A DNA stretch of 57,305 bases from a virus (Duplodnaviria > Caudoviricetes). This document shows positions 12,880 to 51,911 of the stretch, piece after piece. The stretch spans positions 1-57,305 of the IMG/VR virus record IMGVR_UViG_3300021963_000150; one strand, 5' to 3'. Each line of letters begins with the position of its first letter. The stretch's first letter is position 1. The notes under the pieces were generated by a model, which saw only the letters and a list, made by a program, of their open reading frames with translations, did not search any database and was not told where the DNA came from. The position numbers were made by a program, and so were the translations under genes.

Positions 12880-13501
12880 CCCCCAAGTGATGACAAAGGA
12901 GTTTCTCGCAGAACGGGACCTCCGCATATTCAAGCAGCGCCAAGCCGGTGTGCCTATTACCGACATCGCAAAACGATTCGGCGTAACAACCGCTGTCGTC
13001 AACAAGGCAATCCAGCGACAGTTGGACAAGTTGAACCGTGAGGCGTTTTTGGCGTTTCCTGAGGTTCTTCGCATGGAACTTGAACGCCTAGACAGCCTCC
13101 AGTCGGCTATCTGGCCCCTTACCCAGCACAGGAAGGTAACTCTGGATGACGGCAGTGAAGTCACCGTTGAGCCAGACCTCAAGGCAATTCAGCAAGTCTT
13201 GTCCATCATGACTGCCCGCTCAAAGTTGTTGGGGCTTGAGCAAAACAATGTCAACATTCAGATGGATGTCAACTCGAAGCAGGAAATCAAGGCATCTCTC
13301 GCCGGGGCTACGGAGACATTGGCCATCGATGCCTTTGACCCAGAGGTTGAGGCGCGGGCCCTATTGGAAATCATGGGACGAACTGGGGTCATGCCCGCTG
13401 ATGTGGTTGCAAGTATCCTCGGGCAAGAAATAGAGCAACCCTCCCACCAGCCAATACTTGCTGAGTTAGTATCAGGAGAGGAGGTAGATGACAATGAGTG
13501 A
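12866..13501 (+). CDS. HTH protein, possible terminase small subunit
   Basis: N-terminal HTH and the ELERLD.LQ...W...AI..VL.IM..R.KLLGL pattern seen in actinophage HTH/TerS-like proteins. Confidence 0.55.
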   Translation: MADRNPQVMTKEFLAERDLRIFKQRQAGVPITDIAKRFGVTTAVVNKAIQRQLDKLNREAFLAFPEVLRMELERLDSLQSAIWPLTQHRKVTLDDGSEVTVEPDLKAIQQVLSIMTARSKLLGLEQNNVNIQMDVNSKQEIKASLAGATETLAIDAFDPEVEARALLEIMGRTGVMPADVVASILGQEIEQPSHQPILAELVSGEEVDDNE

Positions 13502-13874
13502 TGTGCGATTCCCACCAGGAACCCCCAATGCCAACCAGTTCGCCGAAACAGTCCCGACCGCAACGCCAACCGAGCAAGACAACCTAAAAGCCGCCGTAAA
13601 TAAACTTGCGGAAACGATAGACATGTCAGTGTCCGCAGTTGTCGGCGAAGATGGCCCGACAACAAAGCAGATTATTGTTCGTACAACCGATGACGACCAT
13701 GAAAGATGGAAGCGTGCATCTCAGCGGGACGGCAAGAGTATGTCGCAGTTCATCCGTGAAGTCGTAAATAGCCGTGTGTCAGAGATTCTTGACTGCCAGC
13801 ATCCGACCAACATGCGTCGGTATTACCCGTGGGCAGAGTTCTGCCTCAAGTGTAACTCTCGCCTACGAGGATGA
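13494..13874 (+). CDS. RHH-like DNA-binding protein
   Basis: IIVRTT...ERWKRASQRDGKSMSQFIRE. Confidence 0.55.
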   Translation: MSDVRFPPGTPNANQFAETVPTATPTEQDNLKAAVNKLAETIDMSVSAVVGEDGPTTKQIIVRTTDDDHERWKRASQRDGKSMSQFIREVVNSRVSEILDCQHPTNMRRYYPWAEFCLKCNSRLRG

Positions 13875-14075
13875 TTCCTCGGATTTACTGAAATCGGTAA
13901 TGGAGTCCCGAGCCTGAGTTACTAGCGTCTGAGCATCTTCTTCGGAAGTTCCAATGGCTACAGCGATGTCGGCGTACTCCATGTTCATTGCGTCTCGCAT
14001 AATGAACGCTTGCCTCTGCTCATCTGGGAGCGACTTGATGGCAAGGGTCAATTCCTCTGCGGTCTTGTTTTCCAT
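13863..14075 (-). CDS. stand-alone ECF sigma-70 region-4-like protein
   Basis: AIKSLPDEQRQAFIMRD...MEYADIAVAIG...QAR; no region 2. Confidence 0.75.
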   Translation of the reverse strand: MENKTAEELTLAIKSLPDEQRQAFIMRDAMNMEYADIAVAIGTSEEDAQTLVTQARDSITDFSKSEESSS

Positions 14076-14103
14076 GCCCGCACACTAGCACGAGCGGGAC
14101 CTG

Positions 14104-14274
14104 CTAGCGGCTGCGACCTTGCCCGCGATAGGGCTTTTTGTAATTCTTTGACGACTTCAACTGAGATGTCCCACGCTTGGCGTGGACGCCCTTTCTGTTC
14201 ACGGACTCGTCAATAACGACAACCGAGGGGGCGCTTGATTTGACTGTCTTTTTCTGAGGTGCTGGTTTAGCCAT
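14104..14274 (-). CDS. 56-aa basic phage protein (KxYRGQG type)
   Basis: below cutoff; MAKPAPQKK...SSKNYKKPYRGQGRSR. Confidence 0.55.
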   Translation of the reverse strand: MAKPAPQKKTVKSSAPSVVVIDESVNRKGVHAKRGTSQLKSSKNYKKPYRGQGRSR

Positions 14275-14488
14275 ACCCCATTGTAGTCGATTAACTGGAG
14301 TCCCGTTAGCAGGGGTTCACCCCCTCCCCCGCGATACGCATGGACTCGCATCTGTCGCCGAGGTGTGCGCCCGACGGCTCACAACTGACCAAGGGGGAAG
14401 GGGAGGACGACTCCTTCGGCCGAAAGGAGGTGACCGGCAGGCTCCCTGCTGTCGCCCTTATGCGACAGTCAGGGTAGCACAGCCCCGC

Positions 14489-15034
14489 GGTTCACTCTGC
14501 TAAAGCGGTTCTCTCCAGTTGGTCGGCTCGTTCCAAGGTCCTGGTTCTCTAATTTCGAGCGACTCGCACTACGTCATTGGTTCTCTTGGGTCTGATGGCT
14601 CACTCTATCAAGACGGTTCTCTCTGAAGCCCCGGTTCGTTCGCCCTACGTGGTTCTCTCATCGGCTACGACTCACTCCTTGTTCACGGTTCTCTCGCACT
14701 TCCTGGCTCGCTCATGATTGACGGTTCTCTCTGAAGCCTAGGCTCGCTTCAACTGCATCGGTTCTCTCACCACCTGCGGCTCGCTCTGTGAACGTGGTTC
14801 TCTCACTCTTCTCGGCTCGTTCATCCTCAACGGTTCACTCGTTCTTCGGGACTCGTTCGGGTGGCACGGTTCTCTTCACGCTGACGACTCGCTCTCGGTG
14901 TACGGTTCTCACTAGCACTGCGGCTCACTCAACGGTGTTGGTTCTCTTTACCATGTCGGCTCGCTCGCTCCTTTGGGTTCTCTCGCCGGAACCGGCTCGC
15001 TCGTCGGTGAATGGTTCTCTCACAGTCTCGGCTA
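14489..15034 (-). ncRNA. TIGR-type dual-repeat guide RNA array, 15 units of ~36 nt
   Basis: + strand GGTTCTCTC-like at 14507,14543,14579,14615,14651,14687,14723,14760,14796,14832,14868,14904,14940,14976,15013, alternating with G(G/A)CTC(G/A)(C/T)TC; unique ~9-nt spacers; same repeats abut the Tas-like gene. Confidence 0.9.
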
Positions 15035-15078
15035 TTCCTCACACCATACAGACTCCATTGAGTAATGACAACCCGTGG

Positions 15079-15297
15079 CTACCTTTCGCTCACGAGACCG
15101 TCGTGGTCTGAGTCGGGGTCGGACAGATAGTCCCGTGCCCGCTCGCCCGCCTTGACCACAAGGTAGCCAACTGCGAGGGGGACGACGACCCACCAGTTCA
15201 CCAACCCACCCAACCAACGGCTCGTGGGGGCGAATACGATGAGGGCGAATACGACCGCCATCTTGTGCGTCCAGATGAATCTTGCGATGTTCTCCAT
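15079..15297 (-). CDS. small membrane protein leading the array transcript
   Basis: MENIARFIW... starts at the motif ATG; its 3' part is duplicated at 1-87. Confidence 0.65.
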   Translation of the reverse strand: MENIARFIWTHKMAVVFALIVFAPTSRWLGGLVNWWVVVPLAVGYLVVKAGERARDYLSDPDSDHDGLVSER

Positions 15298-15927
15298 ACT
15301 TCCTCTGTCCCCGTCACCCCCGTAAGGATTTGGGGCAGGGGGCGAACCCCCACCCCGTAGGGTCACCCCTTGATGATGTCACCATCCCAAATCGCTCGTT
15401 CCGCGCAACCGTTTCCTCGGAGCGAACCACACAAGGCGATGCTCCCATCGGTCACTGCGTCGTCTGCGTGGCACGGGTGTCCGCACTCATCGCACATAAC
15501 GGGTTCTTCCACATCTTGGTAGTAGTTGGTGTTCATGCCTACTCTGTCCCCACCCAACCAGTATGGATTTCCACAACCGCCTGTGGATAACAATTAGTGC
15601 TAATTCGCAAGCGTTGCTAACTTACCCGTGGGTAACTTGTATGATGCAAGTATCTTGTTACGCCTTACAGGGCACAACAAAGTCCCGCTCGAGTCGAAGC
15701 CTCAACACTTTACGGTGGCGGAAAGCGACACGCAGATAGATTCAGTTGGACACCTTATGCCCACTTTCGGTGTAGATAGATTCAGAACGAGGAGCATCTC
15801 GCCTCGAAGCACGGGACTTCTCCCCGAACTCGAGGGCGCGGCAAATCTCAAATCTCCTCAACGGCAAAAAGAATAAAAAAACAGTGTGAGTCCAAATCCT
15901 TAGAGGGAGAGACGAGACAGAATAAGC

Positions 15928-16098
15928 ATGGACACCGACGACATCCTTGACCAGATACTTCGCCCACTCACCGAGTGCTGTGGACGAATCCCAACGAACC
16001 ACCTCGCAGACAAGCGGTACTGCCACTACTGCGAGATGAGCGCAGAGTGGTGCCAGTGCGATACGCAGGACATCTGCCAATGCGAGGGGGACAAGTGA
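15928..16098 (+). CDS. Cys-rich small protein
   Basis: starts at plus-strand motif ATG; MDTDDILDQ...CQCEGDK. Confidence 0.55.
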   Translation: MDTDDILDQILRPLTECCGRIPTNHLADKRYCHYCEMSAEWCQCDTQDICQCEGDK

Positions 16099-16956
16099 GC
16101 CTAGACACCTTCCTCTGCCTGCTACTGGGTACCGCCACAAGCATCCCGTGCGGATGGTTCTTCATCAGAATCGCCGACCACATCTCTGGGCAAAACAAAC
16201 TCTGGGGCAAGTAACCACGAGCGGGGCTTCGCCACTGTCGGTGGTCACTACACGTCTTAGATAAATCTACACGAACGTGTTTTATGGGGGGCGGATGACA
16301 TCAAATCTCACGGAAAGTGAAAACGCCGGGAAATTCGCGGGCTTTTCGCCTTTGTTTCGCCTCTCTCAGTAGTCCCGCAGCGTCGCCCCAGCGTGTCCTA
16401 CCGAACTCAACTCTTGATTCCACACTCACTCAGGGTGGTCAATCGGTGTTTATCATCACTCCGAGTGGTATTGAGTAAGGTATGAGGAATGGTGTGTGGT
16501 GTGTGGTTCCCCCCATGAACTGCGAGCCAGAGGTCGGCTGATGTGGGAGTCCCGGGACGACCCCCAGACCCGCACGGTGATGTCTCTGTCCCTCGGGGTT
16601 CTCTTCTCCCCCTCTATGTCTCTCCCTCTGTATCTACCGCCTTCGTTATCCGTTGAGGAAGTAAAAGCGCCCATTTGTCTACGAGGAGTTGCACCGAGAC
16701 GGGACTAACCCGCACTACGGTGACAGGGATGGAGCATGATGAAATCGCTAGTCGCCTTGACCGCCTAAATGCCGACCTAGCCCGCCTAGAGGATGTCATC
16801 GGCACGGTCTACGAGGAAGTTCTTCGCCTTCGAGCCGATGTCTCGGGGACGGAGCCCCGCGGTCGACGCTGGGAAGTGTCCTCGGTCAAGTGGTTCCCCC
16901 CGATGCCCGATTGACGGGCGAGTGGGGGGAGGGTCTCCCCTGCCCCCCGTGACCCG

Positions 16957-17127
16957 TCAGAGCCAATCGAAAAGGTCCCCGTCGGCGATTTCGGAGTAGT
17001 CGAGGTCATTCGCATCGGCGATTGCCTGCCAGACCGCATCCTCCGTGACGGGGGAATCCCAATCAACGTAGTCCTGCCAATCCTTGCTCGGCGTGGGGGT
17101 GGGTTCGGTGTCATGTGAGTGTTCCAT
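16957..17127 (-). CDS. small acidic protein
   Basis: motif-defined start; MEHSHDTE...GDLFDWL. Confidence 0.55.
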   Translation of the reverse strand: MEHSHDTEPTPTPSKDWQDYVDWDSPVTEDAVWQAIADANDLDYSEIADGDLFDWL

Positions 17128-19716: not shown

Positions 19717-19844
19717 GCCTATCCTGTCCCCCGTGGCAAGGTAAGGATTTCCACAGAACAGATGTTCGCCTGTGGACAAACCTGTGGACAAACCTCAACG
19801 AAGTTCACACATCAGTCGCCCGTGCGACGGAAGTCCCGTCCGCT

Positions 19845-25105: not shown

Positions 25106-25656
25106 TGTCACCTCCATGCCTACTCTGTCCCCTGATGGTCAGTAAGGATTTCCACAGGCTGTGGATAAGTGGGTTGTGGATAAGTGGGCTGTGGATAACT
25201 CGCTTCGCGCCCGTACGCTCGAGTGAACGGGACTCCGCTATTACGGCTAACTATTACGGTGGCGGAAAGGAAACCGAGAACTCCTCAGCGTCGCTCGAGT
25301 GTGCCGAGTCCCGTCATGCTCGAGTTCGATGGATGATGATTTCTTTCTTGGGAAGCCAGCCAACCCATTTGCTTGCGAGTGACGACAGAAGAACCTGACC
25401 TTTACGGGAATCGTCCTCTTGTCGAACAAGCACAAAGCGGGGCCCCTGCGAGCGGGTGAGTTTGCGAGTGCGAAGCGAAGCCGTTTGCCCGTTGATGGTG
25501 ATGAGGACTTCCGAGCCGTCAAGAATCTCGGTCACTCTTCCTCTATCCACATTTCCTCGCAGGTGTCGCAGGCGTACTCAGTCCCGTGGTCGTACTTCTC
25601 CACGAACAAGCCCGTGTGTGTCTCGCAGTTCTGGCAGTAGGCGAAGTCTTGTTCGC

Positions 25657-38531: not shown

Positions 38532-38906
38532 CTAGGGATTCCACTTGTACGCCTGTTTCGGACAGATGTAATACGCTGATGCCTCGGCAGATGCCAGCCA
38601 CAAGTCCATCTCGGCTTGGTCGCTCGCCATCTCCGTAATCCACGCAACCACATTGGTCTTGCCCATGCCCCGTTCCATGAAGTCACACCACGTTTCTGAA
38701 TGCTCCAAGAGCGTGTTGTGGGTAATCATTGCTGGGACAGACACCCGTTCGTGAATGAACACAAAGTATTTCCCAAAGTCTGCTTGTTCGTCACTTGGGC
38801 TTGGTACACCCGTCGTCGGTAACGGCGACAAGGTGTCGGGGCTTGCGGTCTCGCTAACGCACCCAATGAGGGTGATGCTGGCTATGAAGGCAATCAACGC
38901 TTTCAT
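38532..38906 (-). CDS. putative lipoprotein
   Basis: MKALIAFIASITLIGC lipobox-like; its RBS lies inside the last mini-array spacer. Confidence 0.6.
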   Translation of the reverse strand: MKALIAFIASITLIGCVSETASPDTLSPLPTTGVPSPSDEQADFGKYFVFIHERVSVPAMITHNTLLEHSETWCDFMERGMGKTNVVAWITEMASDQAEMDLWLASAEASAYYICPKQAYKWNP

Positions 38907-38981
38907 GCGTTCTCCTTTCTCGGTTCTCTCCCACAAAATGACTCACTCATCATTTTCGGTTCTCTCAACGACACTGGCTTA
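38904..38981 (-). ncRNA. 2-unit TIGR-type mini-array abutting the tas stop codon
   Basis: GGTTCTCTC 38922, GACTCACTC 38940, GGTTCTCTC 38958, GGCT 38976; 9-nt spacers. Confidence 0.85.
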
Positions 38982-39866
38982 CAACTTGGGCTTTGCGTCC
39001 TCAACCGCTTTGGCGTGTGCCTCGGGGATGTGCGGAATCGGAATGTAATGGGCGTGTCCACCGTGTTCCAGTACCCACGGCTTCGGGGGCAACTTGCCGT
39101 TGTGGGCAAAGTAAGCCACCTCAAACCAATGCGACAGGAAAATCTTGGTGGCATAGCGACGGGCTTGTAGTTCTATCCGTCCCGCTGGCAACATTCCCCG
39201 TTCCAGCGTCGCTCGCAAGTCCTTGTCTCGGATGTTCTTGGAGTTCAGGGTTTCTTTGGCGAGGTCGGCGTAGTCCCCAGCCTCGTTCTTGGCGAGGCGA
39301 CGAGCCTTGTCTTGGGCGTACAACTTGCCGTAGAAGCAGTCATCTCGCTTGTGGAACTTCATAAACGAGTCGCCAATCTTGTAGCACAGAAGTTTGAGTT
39401 CGGCATTCCACGGTCGCTTCTCGCCCTTGTCCCACTTGGTATTCGGGTCTAGACCGGCGTATCGCCAAATTTGTCCGACCGTTTCCACCCGTGAGATGTC
39501 AATGTGGGCGAGTAGCCCCGCACTGATGACATGACCAATGCCGTACTGCTCCATTGCCCAACGCCCAGCGGTGTGTGCTTCGGCAAACTTCTTTAGAGCA
39601 GGCTTGACAGATTCCTCCAACACAGCCATCTGAACATGGAAGTGGTCAATGATGGTGTTGTCATCGGCGGTGAGCGAGGCTTTCTGATTGCCCATACCGA
39701 CTCGCATCTTCTGTAGGCGGTAGTAGAAGTCCACCAACGCCCTTGCTCCTGACGCATCCAGCGTCCCTGCCTTTACGAGGAGGTCTTTCTCTAGTCGCTT
39801 GGCGACCTCGGGGGCGAGAAAGTCCTCTGTCTCCATGAGGAGACTGTCGTAGTAGGAGTCGGTCAC
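38979..39866 (-). CDS. tasA: Nop/IS110-related RNA-binding protein, TasA-like (no evident RuvC or HNH domain)
   Basis: coiled-coil N-terminus (LVD.YY.LQK.R), GIG.VISAGLLAHIDI, IWRYAGLDP, PWNA.LK.LC.KIG.SF.K, ARR.A.K.FL.H; 295 aa; cognate dual-repeat array adjacent. Confidence 0.8.
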   Translation of the reverse strand: MTDSYYDSLLMETEDFLAPEVAKRLEKDLLVKAGTLDASGARALVDFYYRLQKMRVGMGNQKASLTADDNTIIDHFHVQMAVLEESVKPALKKFAEAHTAGRWAMEQYGIGHVISAGLLAHIDISRVETVGQIWRYAGLDPNTKWDKGEKRPWNAELKLLCYKIGDSFMKFHKRDDCFYGKLYAQDKARRLAKNEAGDYADLAKETLNSKNIRDKDLRATLERGMLPAGRIELQARRYATKIFLSHWFEVAYFAHNGKLPPKPWVLEHGGHAHYIPIPHIPEAHAKAVEDAKPKL

Positions 39867-40285
39867 TTCACCAACTCCTCAATCGTCTTAGCGACTCCCT
39901 TACGGCAGTCCACTCGCACGACCGGCTTGATGGTGACGACTTCCTGCTCCACGGTGGAGGGGATGAGTCCGTCCTTGACAGCCTTGTCAAAGGCATCCTT
40001 GTCCACGGTCATCTTGACGACCTGACGCAGGACGCTCGCAGGGATGAGTGCCTCCAACTTCTCCAAGTCAAAGTCACGGTTCGTGACGGCGACGCACTCA
40101 ACTTTGTGGTCGTCCACGAACACGACTTCCACGCCGTCAAAGGCGAAAGCGTCAATGACGGTCTGGCGAGCAGAGTCGTATGCCTTGCCAGCGTCGGTCT
40201 TTGCCTGCTTCGCACGGATGAAGGTGCGTCCAGCCTGCTCAGAGGGGGTTTCGGTGGTGGGGGTGGGGGTGATGATGGTTTCCAT
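39863..40285 (-). CDS. hypothetical protein translationally coupled upstream of tasA
   Basis: motif-defined start; its stop overlaps the tasA GTG. Confidence 0.7.
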   Translation of the reverse strand: METIITPTPTTETPSEQAGRTFIRAKQAKTDAGKAYDSARQTVIDAFAFDGVEVVFVDDHKVECVAVTNRDFDLEKLEALIPASVLRQVVKMTVDKDAFDKAVKDGLIPSTVEQEVVTIKPVVRVDCRKGVAKTIEELVK

Positions 40286-40442
40286 GTCTCTACTGTCTCC
40301 TATTCACCCGTAAGGATTTGCGTCCTCGGCGTGATGTTGTCCTTTCTATGTAACGAACGGTTGTGTGCGGAATGTGATTCTGTTGCGGAATAGTCCCGTG
40401 AGCAGGGATTATTCAGGCTAGGTATTACGGTGGTGGAAAGCC

Positions 40443-45828: not shown

Positions 45829-46086
45829 TCATGCGTCCTCCGTCTGTGCGTCAAACGCCCCCCGTTGGACGAGGCTCTGAATGGCTCGTGCCTCGGTGCG
45901 ACGGACGCTTTCACGGGTTTCCCCGTTGCCAAGAATCTCGGCGACCTCACTGAGGGTTCGTGCGATGAATCCGTTGTCCACTCCGTATCGGAGCGTGAGA
46001 ACCTGTCGCTCGTGCGTGTCCAGCATCTCCAAAATCTGAATGCGACGCTCCCGTGGGTACGAGGCGAGGTTGATGTTGTAACTCAC
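45829..46086 (-). CDS. stand-alone primary sigma-70 region-4-like protein
   Basis: L...ERQVL.LRYG......RTL.EVA..L...TRESVR..EARA. Confidence 0.8.
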   Translation of the reverse strand: MSYNINLASYPRERRIQILEMLDTHERQVLTLRYGVDNGFIARTLSEVAEILGNGETRESVRRTEARAIQSLVQRGAFDAQTEDA

Positions 46087-47897
46087 TTATCCTCCTCAAA
46101 GGTGTCAAAGCCTTCTAGGGCTTCCAACATCTCTTGATGGTTCGTGGTCATTTGGGCAATACGCAAGAGCAACGCCTTGATGACGAGCATTGGCTCGTTC
46201 CTGAGGCAATCGTCGGCATCCTCATACTCGGAGCCAGCCACAGCGACACCCAGCGAGTAAGCGTGGTTGTAGGTGGTCATCAGTCCCCCTCAAAGTATTC
46301 AGGGTAATGACCCTCAATGACGAACTCGGGGTTCGCCGATTCCGCAACTCGGTAGTAGAGCGACCCATCAGGCTCACGAATGAACTCAATCGCAAAGATT
46401 TCATCGTCAGCAACACAGATGGACATTAGGTACGGGCTGTCCTTGCGACAGTCGTCCTTGTGAACGATGACAATCGCATCATTCCCTCGGTGTATTTCGG
46501 TCATCAGAGGCTCACCATCATGTCGTCGGGCTTGTGTCCAATCGCACGGAGAACGAGGCTTCCCAAAGGGACGCTATGTCCACCGAACTCCCTGTCCAGC
46601 ACATCGGCGTGATACAGGGCAACGCCCGTGGGCATAATCGCTTCGGAGAAAGCCACAGCGTCCTCCAGTGTCTCAAAGTTCATCGTCAGGGTGTACTTCT
46701 TCGGTTTCATACTGTCTCCTCAATGTTCTCGCCGTAGTTGGCGATTCCGTGCTTGCTTTCGTCGTAACACTCGGTGTGGTAGTTGCCGTAGTGGTAGTTG
46801 CCGTCCTCGTCCTCAAACTCCACTCGGGTTTCGTGGTCAAGGTAAATCTGCTTCTCGCACTCGTCGCACTCAAAGCCCGAACACTCGGCACAGCCCCAGC
46901 CGTCATCCACGGGGATGCGGTTGATGAACTTGCCGATGAGTGAGCCGTCCGCACGGGTCGCACCGAACTCGGTGGACTCTCCGCAATAGACGCAGTTGTA
47001 GTTCGTAGTCATAAGGCTTCTGTCGCCAATCGTGCCGTAAGGATTTCGGCATCACGGACACACCACCCGTGGGCGTACCCGTCGGCATAGCGTGTCGGGC
47101 GAGAACCGTCGCCCTTGCCACGCATCGGCTCACCGCACTCACCACACGACTCGTCGTAGTGCCACTCGGCAGGCTCCTGAATGAAGCCGATGGTGACGAA
47201 CTCGCCATACGCCGTACGACCGTCAATGGTCATCGGGTAGGCGGTCACACGGGTTGGCTGGTCGTATTGCCCGCTCCCAAGTTCGTAGGAGTCCCAGATG
47301 TTCACATCCCAGTCGTCGTTGTACGCACCCCACCAGTCGCCCCCGTATTCGGATTTGGGCATGGTGTCCAGTTGTTGTTGCGCCCAAGCGAGAATCGCCT
47401 GCTTCATCTGTTCGTTCATGCTCCCTCTGTCTCCTTGTAGGTCGTAAGGATTTGCTGACGGATGCGACGCACCAGTTCTGATGCCTGCGAGCCACGACCG
47501 TTGTAGTCGTTGTTGGAGTCAATGCCCAACGCACCGCAGAGCCAGTAGAGGAACGACAGGTTGTAGACACCCTCCATCTTGTCCACGGGGTTGCCGTTGG
47601 CATCAAAGATGGTGGACTTCGGGTTGGAATAGTCGGATTCCAGCGTCTGAATGAGTCGTGCCTTGCGGAGTTCATCCTCGGTGAAGTGGGGGGCGTAGAA
47701 CTCGGGAAGGAAGATGGTATGCCCGTCGCCGATGACTTTGCCGTCAGCGAGGGCGTTGCTTGTGCGTTGTAGTAAGTCGGTCATACTCCCTCTGTCCCCC
47801 GACACGGGATAAGGATTTATGGGTCGTGAACAGCGGAAAAGCCCCGCGATGAGGGCTGGGAAATCCTTACGGTGGTCATTGGGGCAGTGTGATTCTA

Positions 47898-50798: not shown

Positions 50799-51126
50799 CG
50801 AGTGAGAGATGAGAGTGATGAGTGAGTAGGTGAGTGAGTAGGTGAGTGAGAGATGAGAGTAGGTGAGTAGGTGAGTGAGTAGGTGAGTAGGTGAGTGAGT
50901 AGGTGATGGGTGAGTAGGTGAGTGAGTAGGTGAGTGAGAGATGAGTAGGTAAGTGAGTAGGTGAGTGATGAGAGTGATGAGTAAGTGAGTAGGTGAGTGA
51001 GTAGGTGATGGGTGAGAGTGATGAGTAAGTGAGTAGGTGAGTGAGTAGGTGATGGGTGAGTGAGTAAGTGATGATTGTTTGTATGCGTCTATGTATGCGT
51101 CTATGTATGCGTCTATGTATGCGTAT
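50799..51126. repeat. GTGA/GTAG microsatellite-like tract plus (ATGTATGCGTCT)x3
   Basis: ~270 bp with essentially no C on the + strand. Confidence 0.9.
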
Positions 51127-51557
51127 GACGATAATGGGATAGTGGTATGTGTGTAGTACCCGTAAGCAACCCGTGGCACTTGTGCGACGACTATGTAGTG
51201 AGTGAGAGATGAGTACGGGGTGGGGTAGGTATGTAGGTGGGGTATGTAGGCAAGTAGGGAGAGGGGTATGTATGTAGTACCCGTAAGATACCCGTGAGGC
51301 TTGCGACTAAAGCAACAACGACGACGACTCTCATTACCTACCTCAACGACGTGACTAAGAGTGATTGCTCACACGATAAAGATGTGACTCATTACGAGTT
51401 CGGGTAGACGGCAATCGTGTTGGCGAGACAATGAGACACAATGTGTCCACTTGTATCACTATGTATGACTGTGTAATACAAGCGTCACTGTAAGTATGTA
51501 TGTGGTTATGTATGCGTAAACATACGGAACAATGTATGACCATACGGCATACGCAGT

Positions 51558-51849
51558 TGTGGATAACTTGTGAATAACTTGTGGACAACTTGTGAATAAC
51601 GAAGTGTAATAACTACTATTACTGTAGAACAATAGTTCAGGTTGTGGATAACTTTTATCTAACGAAGATAGACAAGGTGTTATCAACAGATTTATCAACA
51701 GGTTGTGGATAACTTATCAACAGGTTTATTCACAGATTGTGGATAAAGTAACAAGTTATCAACAGAATGAAAGCGGTTATCCACAAGTCCATAGGTGATT
51801 TCGGCAGTCCCGAGTATTGATTATCAACTTATCAACAGGGTTATCCACA
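51558..51849. promoter_or_regulatory. DnaA-box cluster (oriC-like origin or DnaA-binding locus)
   Basis: perfect TTATCCACA/TGTGGATAA at 51558,51643,51704,51738,51777,51841 plus ~9 one-mismatch boxes; AT-rich and intergenic. Confidence 0.85.
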
Positions 51850-51850
51850 T

Positions 51851-51911
51851 CGAACGAATGTTTTCCGAACAGATGTTCGGTGCGAACAGGTGTACGACGA
51901 ACAAATGTTCG
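51851..51911. promoter_or_regulatory. tandem LexA (Gram-positive/actinobacterial SOS) boxes
   Basis: CGAAC-N4-GTTCG at 51866 and 51898; near-matches at 51851 and 51883. Confidence 0.75.

Follow-up and report, generated by a model that had tools for sequence, protein, structure and literature searches.

TIGR-Tas systems were first described in 2025 (Faure 2025, PMC12045711). Their dual-repeat arrays consist of alternating edge and loop repeats of 8-12 nucleotides (nt) with 9-nt spacers, named A and B, usually in 5-15 units, and they start with an edge repeat that is truncated at its 5' end (Faure 2025, PMC12045711). Such arrays give 36-nt tigRNAs, the spacers of which pair with opposite strands of an 18-base pair (bp) DNA site, and the published repeat layout has a box D at the start and a box C (CCA) at the end, the letters in TasR systems being UG...CCA, with others allowed (PMC12045711). 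TasA proteins bind 36-nt tigRNAs (Faure 2025, PMC12045711), and RNA-guided repression of transcription by TasA, with ribonucleoproteins (RNP) whose DNA targets are set by the spacers, has been reported in a preprint that counts regulation of the viral life cycle among possible roles (Xu 2026 preprint, 10.64898/2026.09.09.750476). Here, we analyze a virus DNA of 57,305 nt, hereafter the window (Duplodnaviria; Caudoviricetes), which is the linear IMG/VR record IMGVR_UViG_3300021963_000150. Its positions 14489-15034 very probably form a functional-looking dual-repeat TIGR array encoding 15 tigRNAs of 36 nt, as part of a phage TIGR-TasA system with a split guide store. The system is a known one, as is its mechanism, and its genomic layout is unreported within the literature surveyed.

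The published searches covered 5 kilobases (kb) on each side of tas (Faure 2025, PMC12045711) or extended to 10 kb at most, of which a median of 5.4 kb was recovered (Xu 2026 preprint, 10.64898/2026.09.09.750476). In the preprint, arrays lie upstream, downstream, flanking or inside tas, and a clade without detectable arrays leads its authors to leave open "an alternative guide RNA source". Natural targets, array dynamics and arrayless Tas proteins are open questions stated in these two sources (Faure 2025, PMC12045711; Xu 2026 preprint). We found no statement on distant or trans-acting TIGR arrays in the accessible parts of Faure 2025, the Xu 2026 preprint and a 2025 review (PMC12385481), or in a wider literature search, although Table S1 and figures S4/S5 of Faure 2025, or TIGRSafari, may already contain the repeat family or arrays of this kind. 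Because the published surveys are limited to 5-10 kb around tas, they would miss the array at 14489-15034, as was anticipated in an initial annotation of the window made from its sequence and open reading frames (ORF).

The closest described systems are the dual-repeat TIGR-TasA systems, e.g. that of Flavonifractor plautii (FpTIGR; PMC12045711). According to the published descriptions, they share with the window 9-nt edge and loop repeats, 9-nt spacer pairs, 36-nt units, a truncated edge at the start, ~15 units, a solo Nop-domain Tas protein without nuclease and a phage-borne location. In contrast to them, the main array of the window lies 23.9 kb from tas, with 2 units adjacent to the gene, no canonical terminator was found behind it, and its expression and processing are predictions. 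The repeats read GAG...CC(R), instead of the UG...CCA described for TasR (PMC12045711).

A 15-unit dual-repeat array lies 24 kb from tas

A search of the window with the pattern GGYTCKCTC-N9-GGYTCKCTC, allowing ≤3 mismatches, gave 31 matches, whereas 100 shuffles gave 0.68 on average and at most 4. Of the 31, 27 follow each other at 18-nt steps within 14489-15002, 2 fall in 38922-38966, and the remaining 2 (27892 and 33203, with 3 mismatches each) look like chance. On the plus strand of 14489-15034, GGTTCTCTC and GGCTCGCTC-like 9-mers alternate at 18-nt spacing. On the minus strand, the same DNA parses into a truncated or degenerate edge, followed by 15 repetitions of spacer A, the loop GAGAGAACC, spacer B and an edge like GAGCGAGCC. 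The 15 loop and 15 full edge repeats, all of 9 nt, thus alternate as in the definition of dual-repeat arrays, and the chain of matches and the parse in register bear out the 15-unit guide array of the initial annotation. Tandem Repeats Finder does not report the array because the spacers break identity, so that a pattern search was required.

The minus strand was chosen as the orientation because the GAG at the start and the CC(R) at the end of the repeats match the published box D and box C there, which is not the case on the plus strand. GAG opens the repeats of both classes: G1 occurs in 14/16 edges and 11/15 loops, and A2 in 14/16 edges and 14/15 loops. C9 closes all of them (16/16 and 15/15), within ACC in the loop and within GCC or GTC in the edge. 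The base that follows the terminal CC is a purine in most units on this strand. Positions 3 and 5-9 of the loop are invariant in 15/15 units, and the edge consensus is more variable except for its C9. The leading edge is 5'-truncated or degenerate, ending in ..AGCC at 15030-15033, with a GCC counterpart at 38976-38978 and similar starts in the arrays of relatives, and the terminal repeat GAGTGAACC (14489-14497) is an edge/loop hybrid.

None of the 30 spacers is identical to another, the most alike being TAGGCTTCA and GGGGCTTCA. The strict 18/36-bp period of the initial annotation needs qualification: the repeats do alternate, with 9-nt spacers in 28 cases of 30, but two spacers have 10 nt (15003-15012 and 14750-14759), which gives a 36-nt period with two 37-nt units, and the first spacer measures 8 or 9 nt, according to the end that is assigned to the truncated edge. 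The interior of the array is no more structured as RNA than shuffled sequence (z +0.76). We also considered a CRISPR array, which is ruled out by the two alternating kinds of repeat, each of 9 nt, and by spacers of 9 nt. No Cas family was matched by 10 ORFs compared with Pfam and 10 with PHROGs, in searches that were not dedicated to cas genes.

Two further units directly follow the tas gene (Table 1). After the tas stop codon, the order in this mini-array is GCC (a truncated edge), AGTGTCGTT, GAGAGAACC, GAAAATGAT, GAGTGAGTC, ATTTTGTGG, GAGAGAACC, GAGAAAGGA and GAACG.. The two arrays have matching repeats, as initially noticed, since the loop GAGAGAACC of the distal array occurs twice in the mini-array, whose edge GAGTGAGTC is identical to the distal edge at 14669-14677. 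The system therefore has 17 units, 2 of which adjoin tas, whereas 15 lie 23,945 nt downstream of it (from the tas stop at 38979 to 15034), on the same strand and beyond many small minus-strand genes. This agrees with the distance of ~24 kb first given. The word "orphan", also used then, does not apply to a genome that has a tas gene with its own 2-unit array, and "distal" is the better term for 14489-15034. Adjacency to tas holds for the mini-array alone, and we treat it as a criterion by which TIGR-Tas systems are discovered, not as a mechanistic one.

Both arrays had been described as starting at a TA(A)GCC that overlaps a stop codon. This is correct next to tas, where TAAGCC at 38976-38981 is the stop codon of tas plus the truncated edge. 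At the distal array, TAGCC (15030-15034) closes only an implausible, out-of-frame ORF of 61 amino acids (aa; 15032-15217), and the plausible upstream gene, of 72 aa, terminates in another TAGCC (15077-15081), 45 nt before the array. At the other end of the mini-array, the final spacer GAGAAAGGA also serves as the ribosome-binding region for the gene that follows, which starts with the ATG at 38903-38905 and probably encodes a lipoprotein. Spacer B of the first unit and spacer A of the second are complementary over 7-8 nt, with the edge repeat in the loop of the hairpin (fold z -1.23, not significant). This arrangement may couple binding or processing by TasA to the translation of the next gene.

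Table 1. Positions of the features in the window, and of tas and arrays in related virus records (G handles). Positions in related records are in kb.
Record	Feature	Position	Strand	Basis or remark
Window	Distal dual-repeat TIGR array	14489-15034	-	Sequence, pattern matches, register parsing
Window	tas-proximal mini-array, 2 units	38906-38978	-	Sequence, 2 pattern matches, array finder
Window	tasA, 295 aa, Nop-domain protein without nuclease domain	38979-39866	-	Sequence and fold homology
Window	140-aa ORF, stop overlapping tas start	39863-40285	-	ORF list; no Pfam family; cassette at 40286-40319
Window	Candidate sigma-70-like promoter (TTGTCA, 17 nt, TATGGT)	15043-15071	-	Consensus scan; putative function
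Window	Strong hairpin, ~15 pairs including a 7-bp GC-rich core, without U-tract	14441-14478	-	Directly 3' of last repeat
Window	Small upstream gene, 72 aa, ATG at 15297	15079-15297	-	ORF 15079-15366; start set by gene-start cassette at 15331
Window	Gene-start cassette before the array's upstream gene	15298-15331	-	AAATCCTTAC, N9-10, GRGACAG, N7, ATG
Window	Downstream gene, 56-aa basic protein	14104-14274	-	ORF
Window	Downstream gene, 70-aa sigma-70 region-4-like protein	13863-14075	-	ORF
G006	tas, with 8 adjacent units	34.9-35.7		
G006	Distal arrays	12.1-13.1 (29 units) and 16.6 (6 units), other strand		18-22 kb from tas
G030	tas, with 8 adjacent units	37.8-38.6		
G030	Distal arrays of 9 and 2 units	18.9-19.7		18 kb from tas
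G001	tas	66.2-67.2		
G001	Arrays	44.7, 57.0, 61.2, 64.5, 66.1, 67.4, 68.5		Up to 21.5 kb from tas
G002	tas	30.1-31.0		
G002	Arrays	11.2, 21.2, 29.5, 31.0-31.5, 38.1, 81.2-81.7		Up to 51 kb from tas
G005	tas	16.9-17.8		Single match 58 kb off
G026 (record of L057)	10-match array	~45960-46782 (nt)		Record of 50 kb, 62% complete; no tas detected with the Tas of the window

The single Tas protein of the window is a nuclease-free TasA

The tas gene is unique in the window, since a profile of its clade matches 1 of 901 stop-to-stop frames. In a phmmer search of the PDB, its product matches TaTasR (9mty_A, E 7.2e-20) and TasH (E 2.9e-7), and a profile of 32 clade members retrieves TaTasR 9MTY (2e-24) and SpTasH (5e-14), then the IS621 and ISCro4 recombinases. 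PDB entry 9MTY is identified as TaTasR in the data statement of the first report (Faure 2025, PMC12045711). An AlphaFold model computed from the clade alignment is all-helical (pLDDT 87.9, pTM 0.85), and Foldseek places TasR or TasH chains of the PDB at ranks 1-10, all with probability 1.00, with IS621 and ISCro4 after them. TaTasR and SpTasH (9W03, 21KL and others) are thus the best matches in sequence and fold, over the Nop and coiled-coil part.

In contrast to these two proteins, the window protein has no RuvC or HNH domain, because the alignment begins at residue 123 of TaTasR and only ~50 residues of the query precede it. With Pfam, a match below threshold to the IS110-family Transposase_20 was the only one, and no nuclease family was found. 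The 38979-39866 product is therefore TasA. In PHROGs v4, it belongs to phrog_4285, "transposase, integration and excision" (E 1.2e-37), a label that is probably a legacy of the resemblance to IS110; phage annotation relying on it would mislabel TasA genes. The processing dyad of SpTasH consists of Y289 and H296 (PMC13421893), and in a profile alignment these residues align with the clade motif PY....GH. The window protein has the C-terminal loop motif KPW..EHGGH in common with TaTasR, and its catalytic His aligns with H296 of SpTasH. The 140-aa ORF that overlaps the start of tas seems to form an operon with it.

ARAGORN predicts an 89-nt tRNA-Lys(CTT) at 39250-39338 on the plus strand, within tas and on the opposite strand, which is probably a false positive.

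Distal arrays recur in related phages

Relatives were gathered by scanning IMG/VR with the pattern GGTTCTCTC-N9-GRCTCRYTC, which gave at least 119 viral stretches. In 84 of the 119 matches listed, the locus encodes a Tas homologue at 30-60% identity, which places the repeat type in a large Tas clade found in virus records. A search with the single Tas protein retrieved no relatives, whereas the repeat pattern did. We compared 40 whole records, picked by length as those with the longest contigs (37-121 kb). A tas gene was found in 39 of them, and array positions were obtained for 39 of the 40 (all but G033).

In 33 of these 39 records, all the array matches listed lie within ~3.4 kb of tas. Four others have, besides adjacent arrays, multi-unit arrays 11-51 kb away from the gene (G001, G002, G006 and G030; Table 1), so that arrays >10 kb from tas recur in 4, arguably 6, of the 39 records. 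The comparison with related phages that the initial annotation had suggested thus shows that the distal location recurs. In G026, either there is truly no tas or it lies >46 kb from the array or past the end of the contig. The closest relative, G024, with a Tas that is 60% identical and with replication genes in common, has a classical layout, i.e. tas, a 73-aa ORF and ~36 contiguous units, and no distal array.

The arrays of relatives are cassettes between genes (L128-L146, from G030, G006, G002, G001 and other loci). Typically they begin at the preceding stop codon (TAGCC, TAAGCC or TGAGCC), and they often run into the next ribosome-binding site and ATG. Because it is typical in relatives, the start at a stop codon is a family habit, which fits the tas-proximal array of the window better than the distal one. 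Some spacers recur across the arrays of one genome, namely ATCCGGCGT and AGCGATTAT in two arrays of G006, and AGGAGGATT and ATGAACCTT in arrays of G002.

The array changes by whole units and by spacer-biased replacement

A stretch of 1.6 kb containing the array is present, at half or more of its sampled words, in 17 public runs. Any part of it is found in 20 rows, from 11 studies of marine, estuary, freshwater and aquatic metagenomes, although 3 of these rows may be the source of the record itself. We aligned contigs from four runs to the array region. A 1,307-nt DNA contig of run X5, from another study, is identical to the window over 13800-14807 and has 19 listed substitutions in 14808-15024, of which 15 are in spacers and 4 in repeats. 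In its unit 2, 4 of the 9 positions are changed in each spacer. Run X17, from yet another study, carries the substitutions of X5 too. In addition, one X17 contig omits 37 nt (14740>14778), corresponding to a unit with a 10-nt spacer, and one contig of X19, a run that is probably DNA, omits exactly 36 nt (14560>14597). The flank at 15056-15400 shows one substitution and three small insertions in the variants. Change in the array thus proceeds in whole units and by replacement biased to spacers, within fixed surroundings; this speaks against a dead relic and against coding sequence.

The changes in strains of the window fall in the promoter-proximal units 1-7. Among 12 non-identical pairs of related arrays that share at least 5 units and are not independent of each other, unshared units are internal in 270 cases, at the 5' end in 61 and at the 3' end in 54, and the first unit is common in 7/12 pairs and the last in 6/12. 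There is thus no CRISPR-like polarity of unit gain among these pairs. A diversity-generating retroelement was considered as the source of the changes and left no sign, the substitution spectrum being without A bias.

Proposed function and alternative explanations

In the reading that we favor, the array would be transcribed from the minus strand, either by read-through from the small upstream gene or from the sigma-70-like promoter at 15043-15071. TasA made from the distant operon would bind the conserved ends of the units, with GAG in the position of box D, and CC plus a purine in the position of box C. The precursor would then be cut within the edge repeats to give 36-nt tigRNAs, a step for which H271 is present; W264 stands in for the catalytic Tyr, as in TaTasR, so that a host RNase may assist. 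TasA dimers loaded in trans would recognize 18-bp DNA sites, spacer A pairing with one strand and spacer B with the other, and in the absence of a nuclease would keep foreign or host DNA from being transcribed or replicated.

Several observations weigh against this reading. The promoter site is at chance level (1 found, 0.7 expected in shuffles), and a terminator scan of the 3' flank of the array found no canonical site. The only contig from an RNA library (13996-14228) lies outside the array, and contigs cannot reveal 36-nt species. Several repeats are degenerate, e.g. GTGCGAGTC, TAGAGAACC and GAACGAACC. As regards guide function, no target was found in the window or in the related phage DNA searched. 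The record is 39% complete according to CheckV, and the absent part may hold a second tas or more arrays. Finally, the Tyr of the processing dyad (Y289 in SpTasH), which is present in at least 90% of the 32 clade members, is replaced by W264 in the window protein, the His being kept. TaTasR carries a Trp at the same position, and its arrays are reported to be processed in E. coli in a TasR-dependent manner (Faure 2025, PMC12045711). The change from Tyr to Trp makes host help in processing plausible.

Could the array be a relic that has ceased to supply guides, i.e. the stranded and decaying remainder of a contiguous tas-array locus that was split when ~24 kb of small genes were inserted or rearranged? 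The undivided ~36-unit array of G024, the mere 2 units left beside tas in the window and the degenerate distal repeats are all compatible with such a history. However, the 36-nt register is held through 15 units with six loop positions invariant, the differences between strains are biased to spacers (15 versus 4) and include clean indels of whole units, and at least half the words of the stretch are present in 17 runs. Moreover, distal multi-unit arrays occur in 4 other records, in one case with 29 units. We therefore consider a relic unlikely.

It is also quite unlikely that the arrays are mainly cis-acting RNA elements, in which TasA would cleave or bind sites to regulate the flanking mRNAs, instead of a library of DNA guides. 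Such a role is suggested by the way in which arrays of relatives often span the distance from the upstream stop codon to the next ribosome-binding site and ATG, and by the last spacer of the mini-array, which coincides with the ribosome-binding region of the gene behind it. A cis element would nevertheless have no need for 30 distinct spacers with high turnover, and TasA RNPs are described as binding DNA at sites that the spacers determine (Xu 2026 preprint). In any case, a cis-acting role is compatible with a guide role, the two not being mutually exclusive.

A third possibility, which we regard as very unlikely, is that the guides target the phage's own genome and time the expression of its genes. 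TasA represses transcription, and regulation of the life cycle has been proposed (Xu 2026 preprint). Targets were sought in the geometries rc(A)+B and B+rc(A), where rc is the reverse complement, with mispaired spacers as controls; the two geometries are labeled T1 and T2 below. For the 15 units against the window, which is 39% of the genome, T1 gave 10 sites at ≤4 mismatches, compared with 8.5 from 210 mispaired controls, and T2 gave 4 compared with 9.7. At ≤2 mismatches, no site was found in either geometry. Nor was there any excess of near matches when G030, G006, G002 and G024 were searched against their own records. Because there is no excess over mispaired controls, self-regulation is unsupported in the sequence available. 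One spacer of G002 that resembles the cassette motif of the window (TAAATCCTT) was considered as a self-target and was not borne out, G002 being without self-targets.

Targets elsewhere were sought in the same way. In 1.06 megabases (Mb) of related phage loci there was no excess, with three matches at 2 mismatches including one site in two homologous loci, and 1,397 unique spacer pairs gave 1 (T1) and 6 (T2) matches in ~1.4 Mb, against 3.0 for shuffled pairs. The search with joined spacers proposed in the initial annotation was negative for the window and for related phage DNA. The most likely candidates are the DNA of the host or that of competing mobile elements. Natural targets are also hard to find in the published work on TIGR-Tas systems (Faure 2025, PMC12045711; Xu 2026 preprint).

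Regarding the host, megablast of 13000-17000 against GenBank phages gave no match, and tblastn of Tas against the same phages gave none at E 1e-5. Scanned with the repeat pattern, prokaryote genomes yielded 86 stretches, almost all with a single match, where ~140 are expected by chance. Only a few are array-like, namely L218, from a Burkholderiales metagenome-assembled genome (3 matches at 36-nt steps), L211 (5 matches) and L174 (3 matches). With no cultured phage relative and a prokaryote scan near chance, we name no host, and the actinobacterial one suggested by the initial annotation finds no support in the scan or in tblastn.

A protein-coding hexapeptide repeat, in which the 18-nt period would correspond to 6 codons and which had been named at the outset as a finding that would overturn a guide array, can be dismissed: two ORFs, of 46 aa and of 107 aa (the latter at 14788-15111), do cross part of the array, but they are on the plus strand and antisense to every neighboring gene (the flanking genes and tas are all on the minus strand), stop codons interrupt every frame of the array on both strands, the minus strand has no ORF of ≥40 aa, two 10-nt spacers shift the frame, strains differ by a natural 37-nt deletion, and the same repeats lie beside tas in 84 of the 119 loci listed.

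Comparison with other guide systems and consequences

Isolated or orphan CRISPR arrays that are used in trans are a clear precedent for a layout of this kind. They are similarly remote from the effector gene, and their repeats match those of the effector-adjacent array, so that by analogy the supply of guides in trans would be the natural reading here. Unlike them, the distal array has dual repeats of 9 nt, split spacers of 9+9 nt, a Nop-domain effector, no adaptation genes and, among the related arrays compared, no polarity of unit gain. Clustered box C/D small nucleolar RNA (snoRNA) genes of archaea and plants, described as relatives of TIGR-Tas systems (Faure 2025, PMC12045711), have in common with it two guide segments, box C/D-like bounds and a Nop-domain dimer. 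These snoRNA genes may be dispersed, or processed from polycistrons. They differ in guiding RNA methylation with fibrillarin and L7Ae and in having kink-turns (K-turns), none of which was seen here in a search that was not in depth.

This locus and four to six related records have arrays tens of kilobases from tas, between genes. Surveys of 5-10 kb would therefore undercount guides and may label systems as array-poor or arrayless. The comparison of strains is direct natural evidence of how such an array changes, by loss of whole units and by spacer-biased replacement. The known mechanism is unchanged by the layout, which lends itself to a simple test of trans loading.

A bolder extension, which is possible but which we put forward tentatively, is that a clade of aquatic phages keeps its guides as intergenic cassettes, located as far as ~50 kb from tas, which would all supply a single TasA in trans. 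In that event, catalogues restricted to ≤10 kb from tas would overlook a large part of the guides (15 of the 17 units here), and some "arrayless" Tas proteins may use distant arrays. Because the cassettes sit inside operons, cutting at the edge repeats would also sever the surrounding mRNAs and couple guide production to the regulation of phage genes.

Flanking genes and other repeats of the window

The candidate promoter sits between the stop of the upstream gene (15079) and the array, with a predicted start at ~15036, which corresponds to the first bases of the array. The 72-aa product of the upstream gene is hydrophobic and probably a membrane protein, with one weak Pfam match below the cutoff. 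On the other side, the RNA fold of 14380-14492 on the minus strand has a free energy of -47.9 kcal/mol (z -2.06), and the hairpin at 14441-14478 may be a terminator or a processing stop. Further downstream, the 70-aa protein matches Sigma70_r4_2 in Pfam (E 1.2e-11) and the sigma factor family phrog_1740. The RNA-library run X18 contributes one contig of 233 nt here, which may come from either strand and for which DNA carry-over is possible.

The upstream gene is preceded by a gene-start cassette of ~37 nt with fixed spacing, which had initially been read as a phage promoter motif common to both arrays and as the means of co-expressing the distal guides with Tas. The motif is real at both places (15295-15332 and 40283-40320). 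However, it is present in 46 copies in the window, of which 40, on the minus strand (15298-47818), precede nearly every gene from 15.3 to 47.8 kb and 6 are on the plus strand (e.g. 15894, 17178, 47861 and 48404), and the 14-mer of the cassette has 39 matches against 4.25 expected. Because there are 46 copies, before ~40 minus-strand genes, the motif links no arrays specifically, and co-expression through a shared promoter does not follow from it. The cassette may act as a phage-specific promoter, as a leader or as a signal for the start of translation.

Palindromes of the form CCACAG...CTGTGG, often within TTATCCACAG, occur just before ~7 of the cassettes (15570, 18582, 19750, 22626, 24677, 25151 and 29868). 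We take TTATCCACAG to resemble a DnaA box. Tandem repeats are found at 19769-19795, 25157-25198 and 51557-51911, with clusters of TTGTGGATAAC and TTATCAACAG at 51.5-51.9 kb. The palindromes and the repeats at 51.5-51.9 kb may be operator sites or a replication origin. Shortly before the latter, 50800-51124 is a low-GC, strongly G-skewed block (GC content 0.48 and GC skew 0.28 over 50-52 kb) with ~35 8-mers that resemble GAGTGAGT, after which come 3.8 copies of TGTATGCGTCTA.

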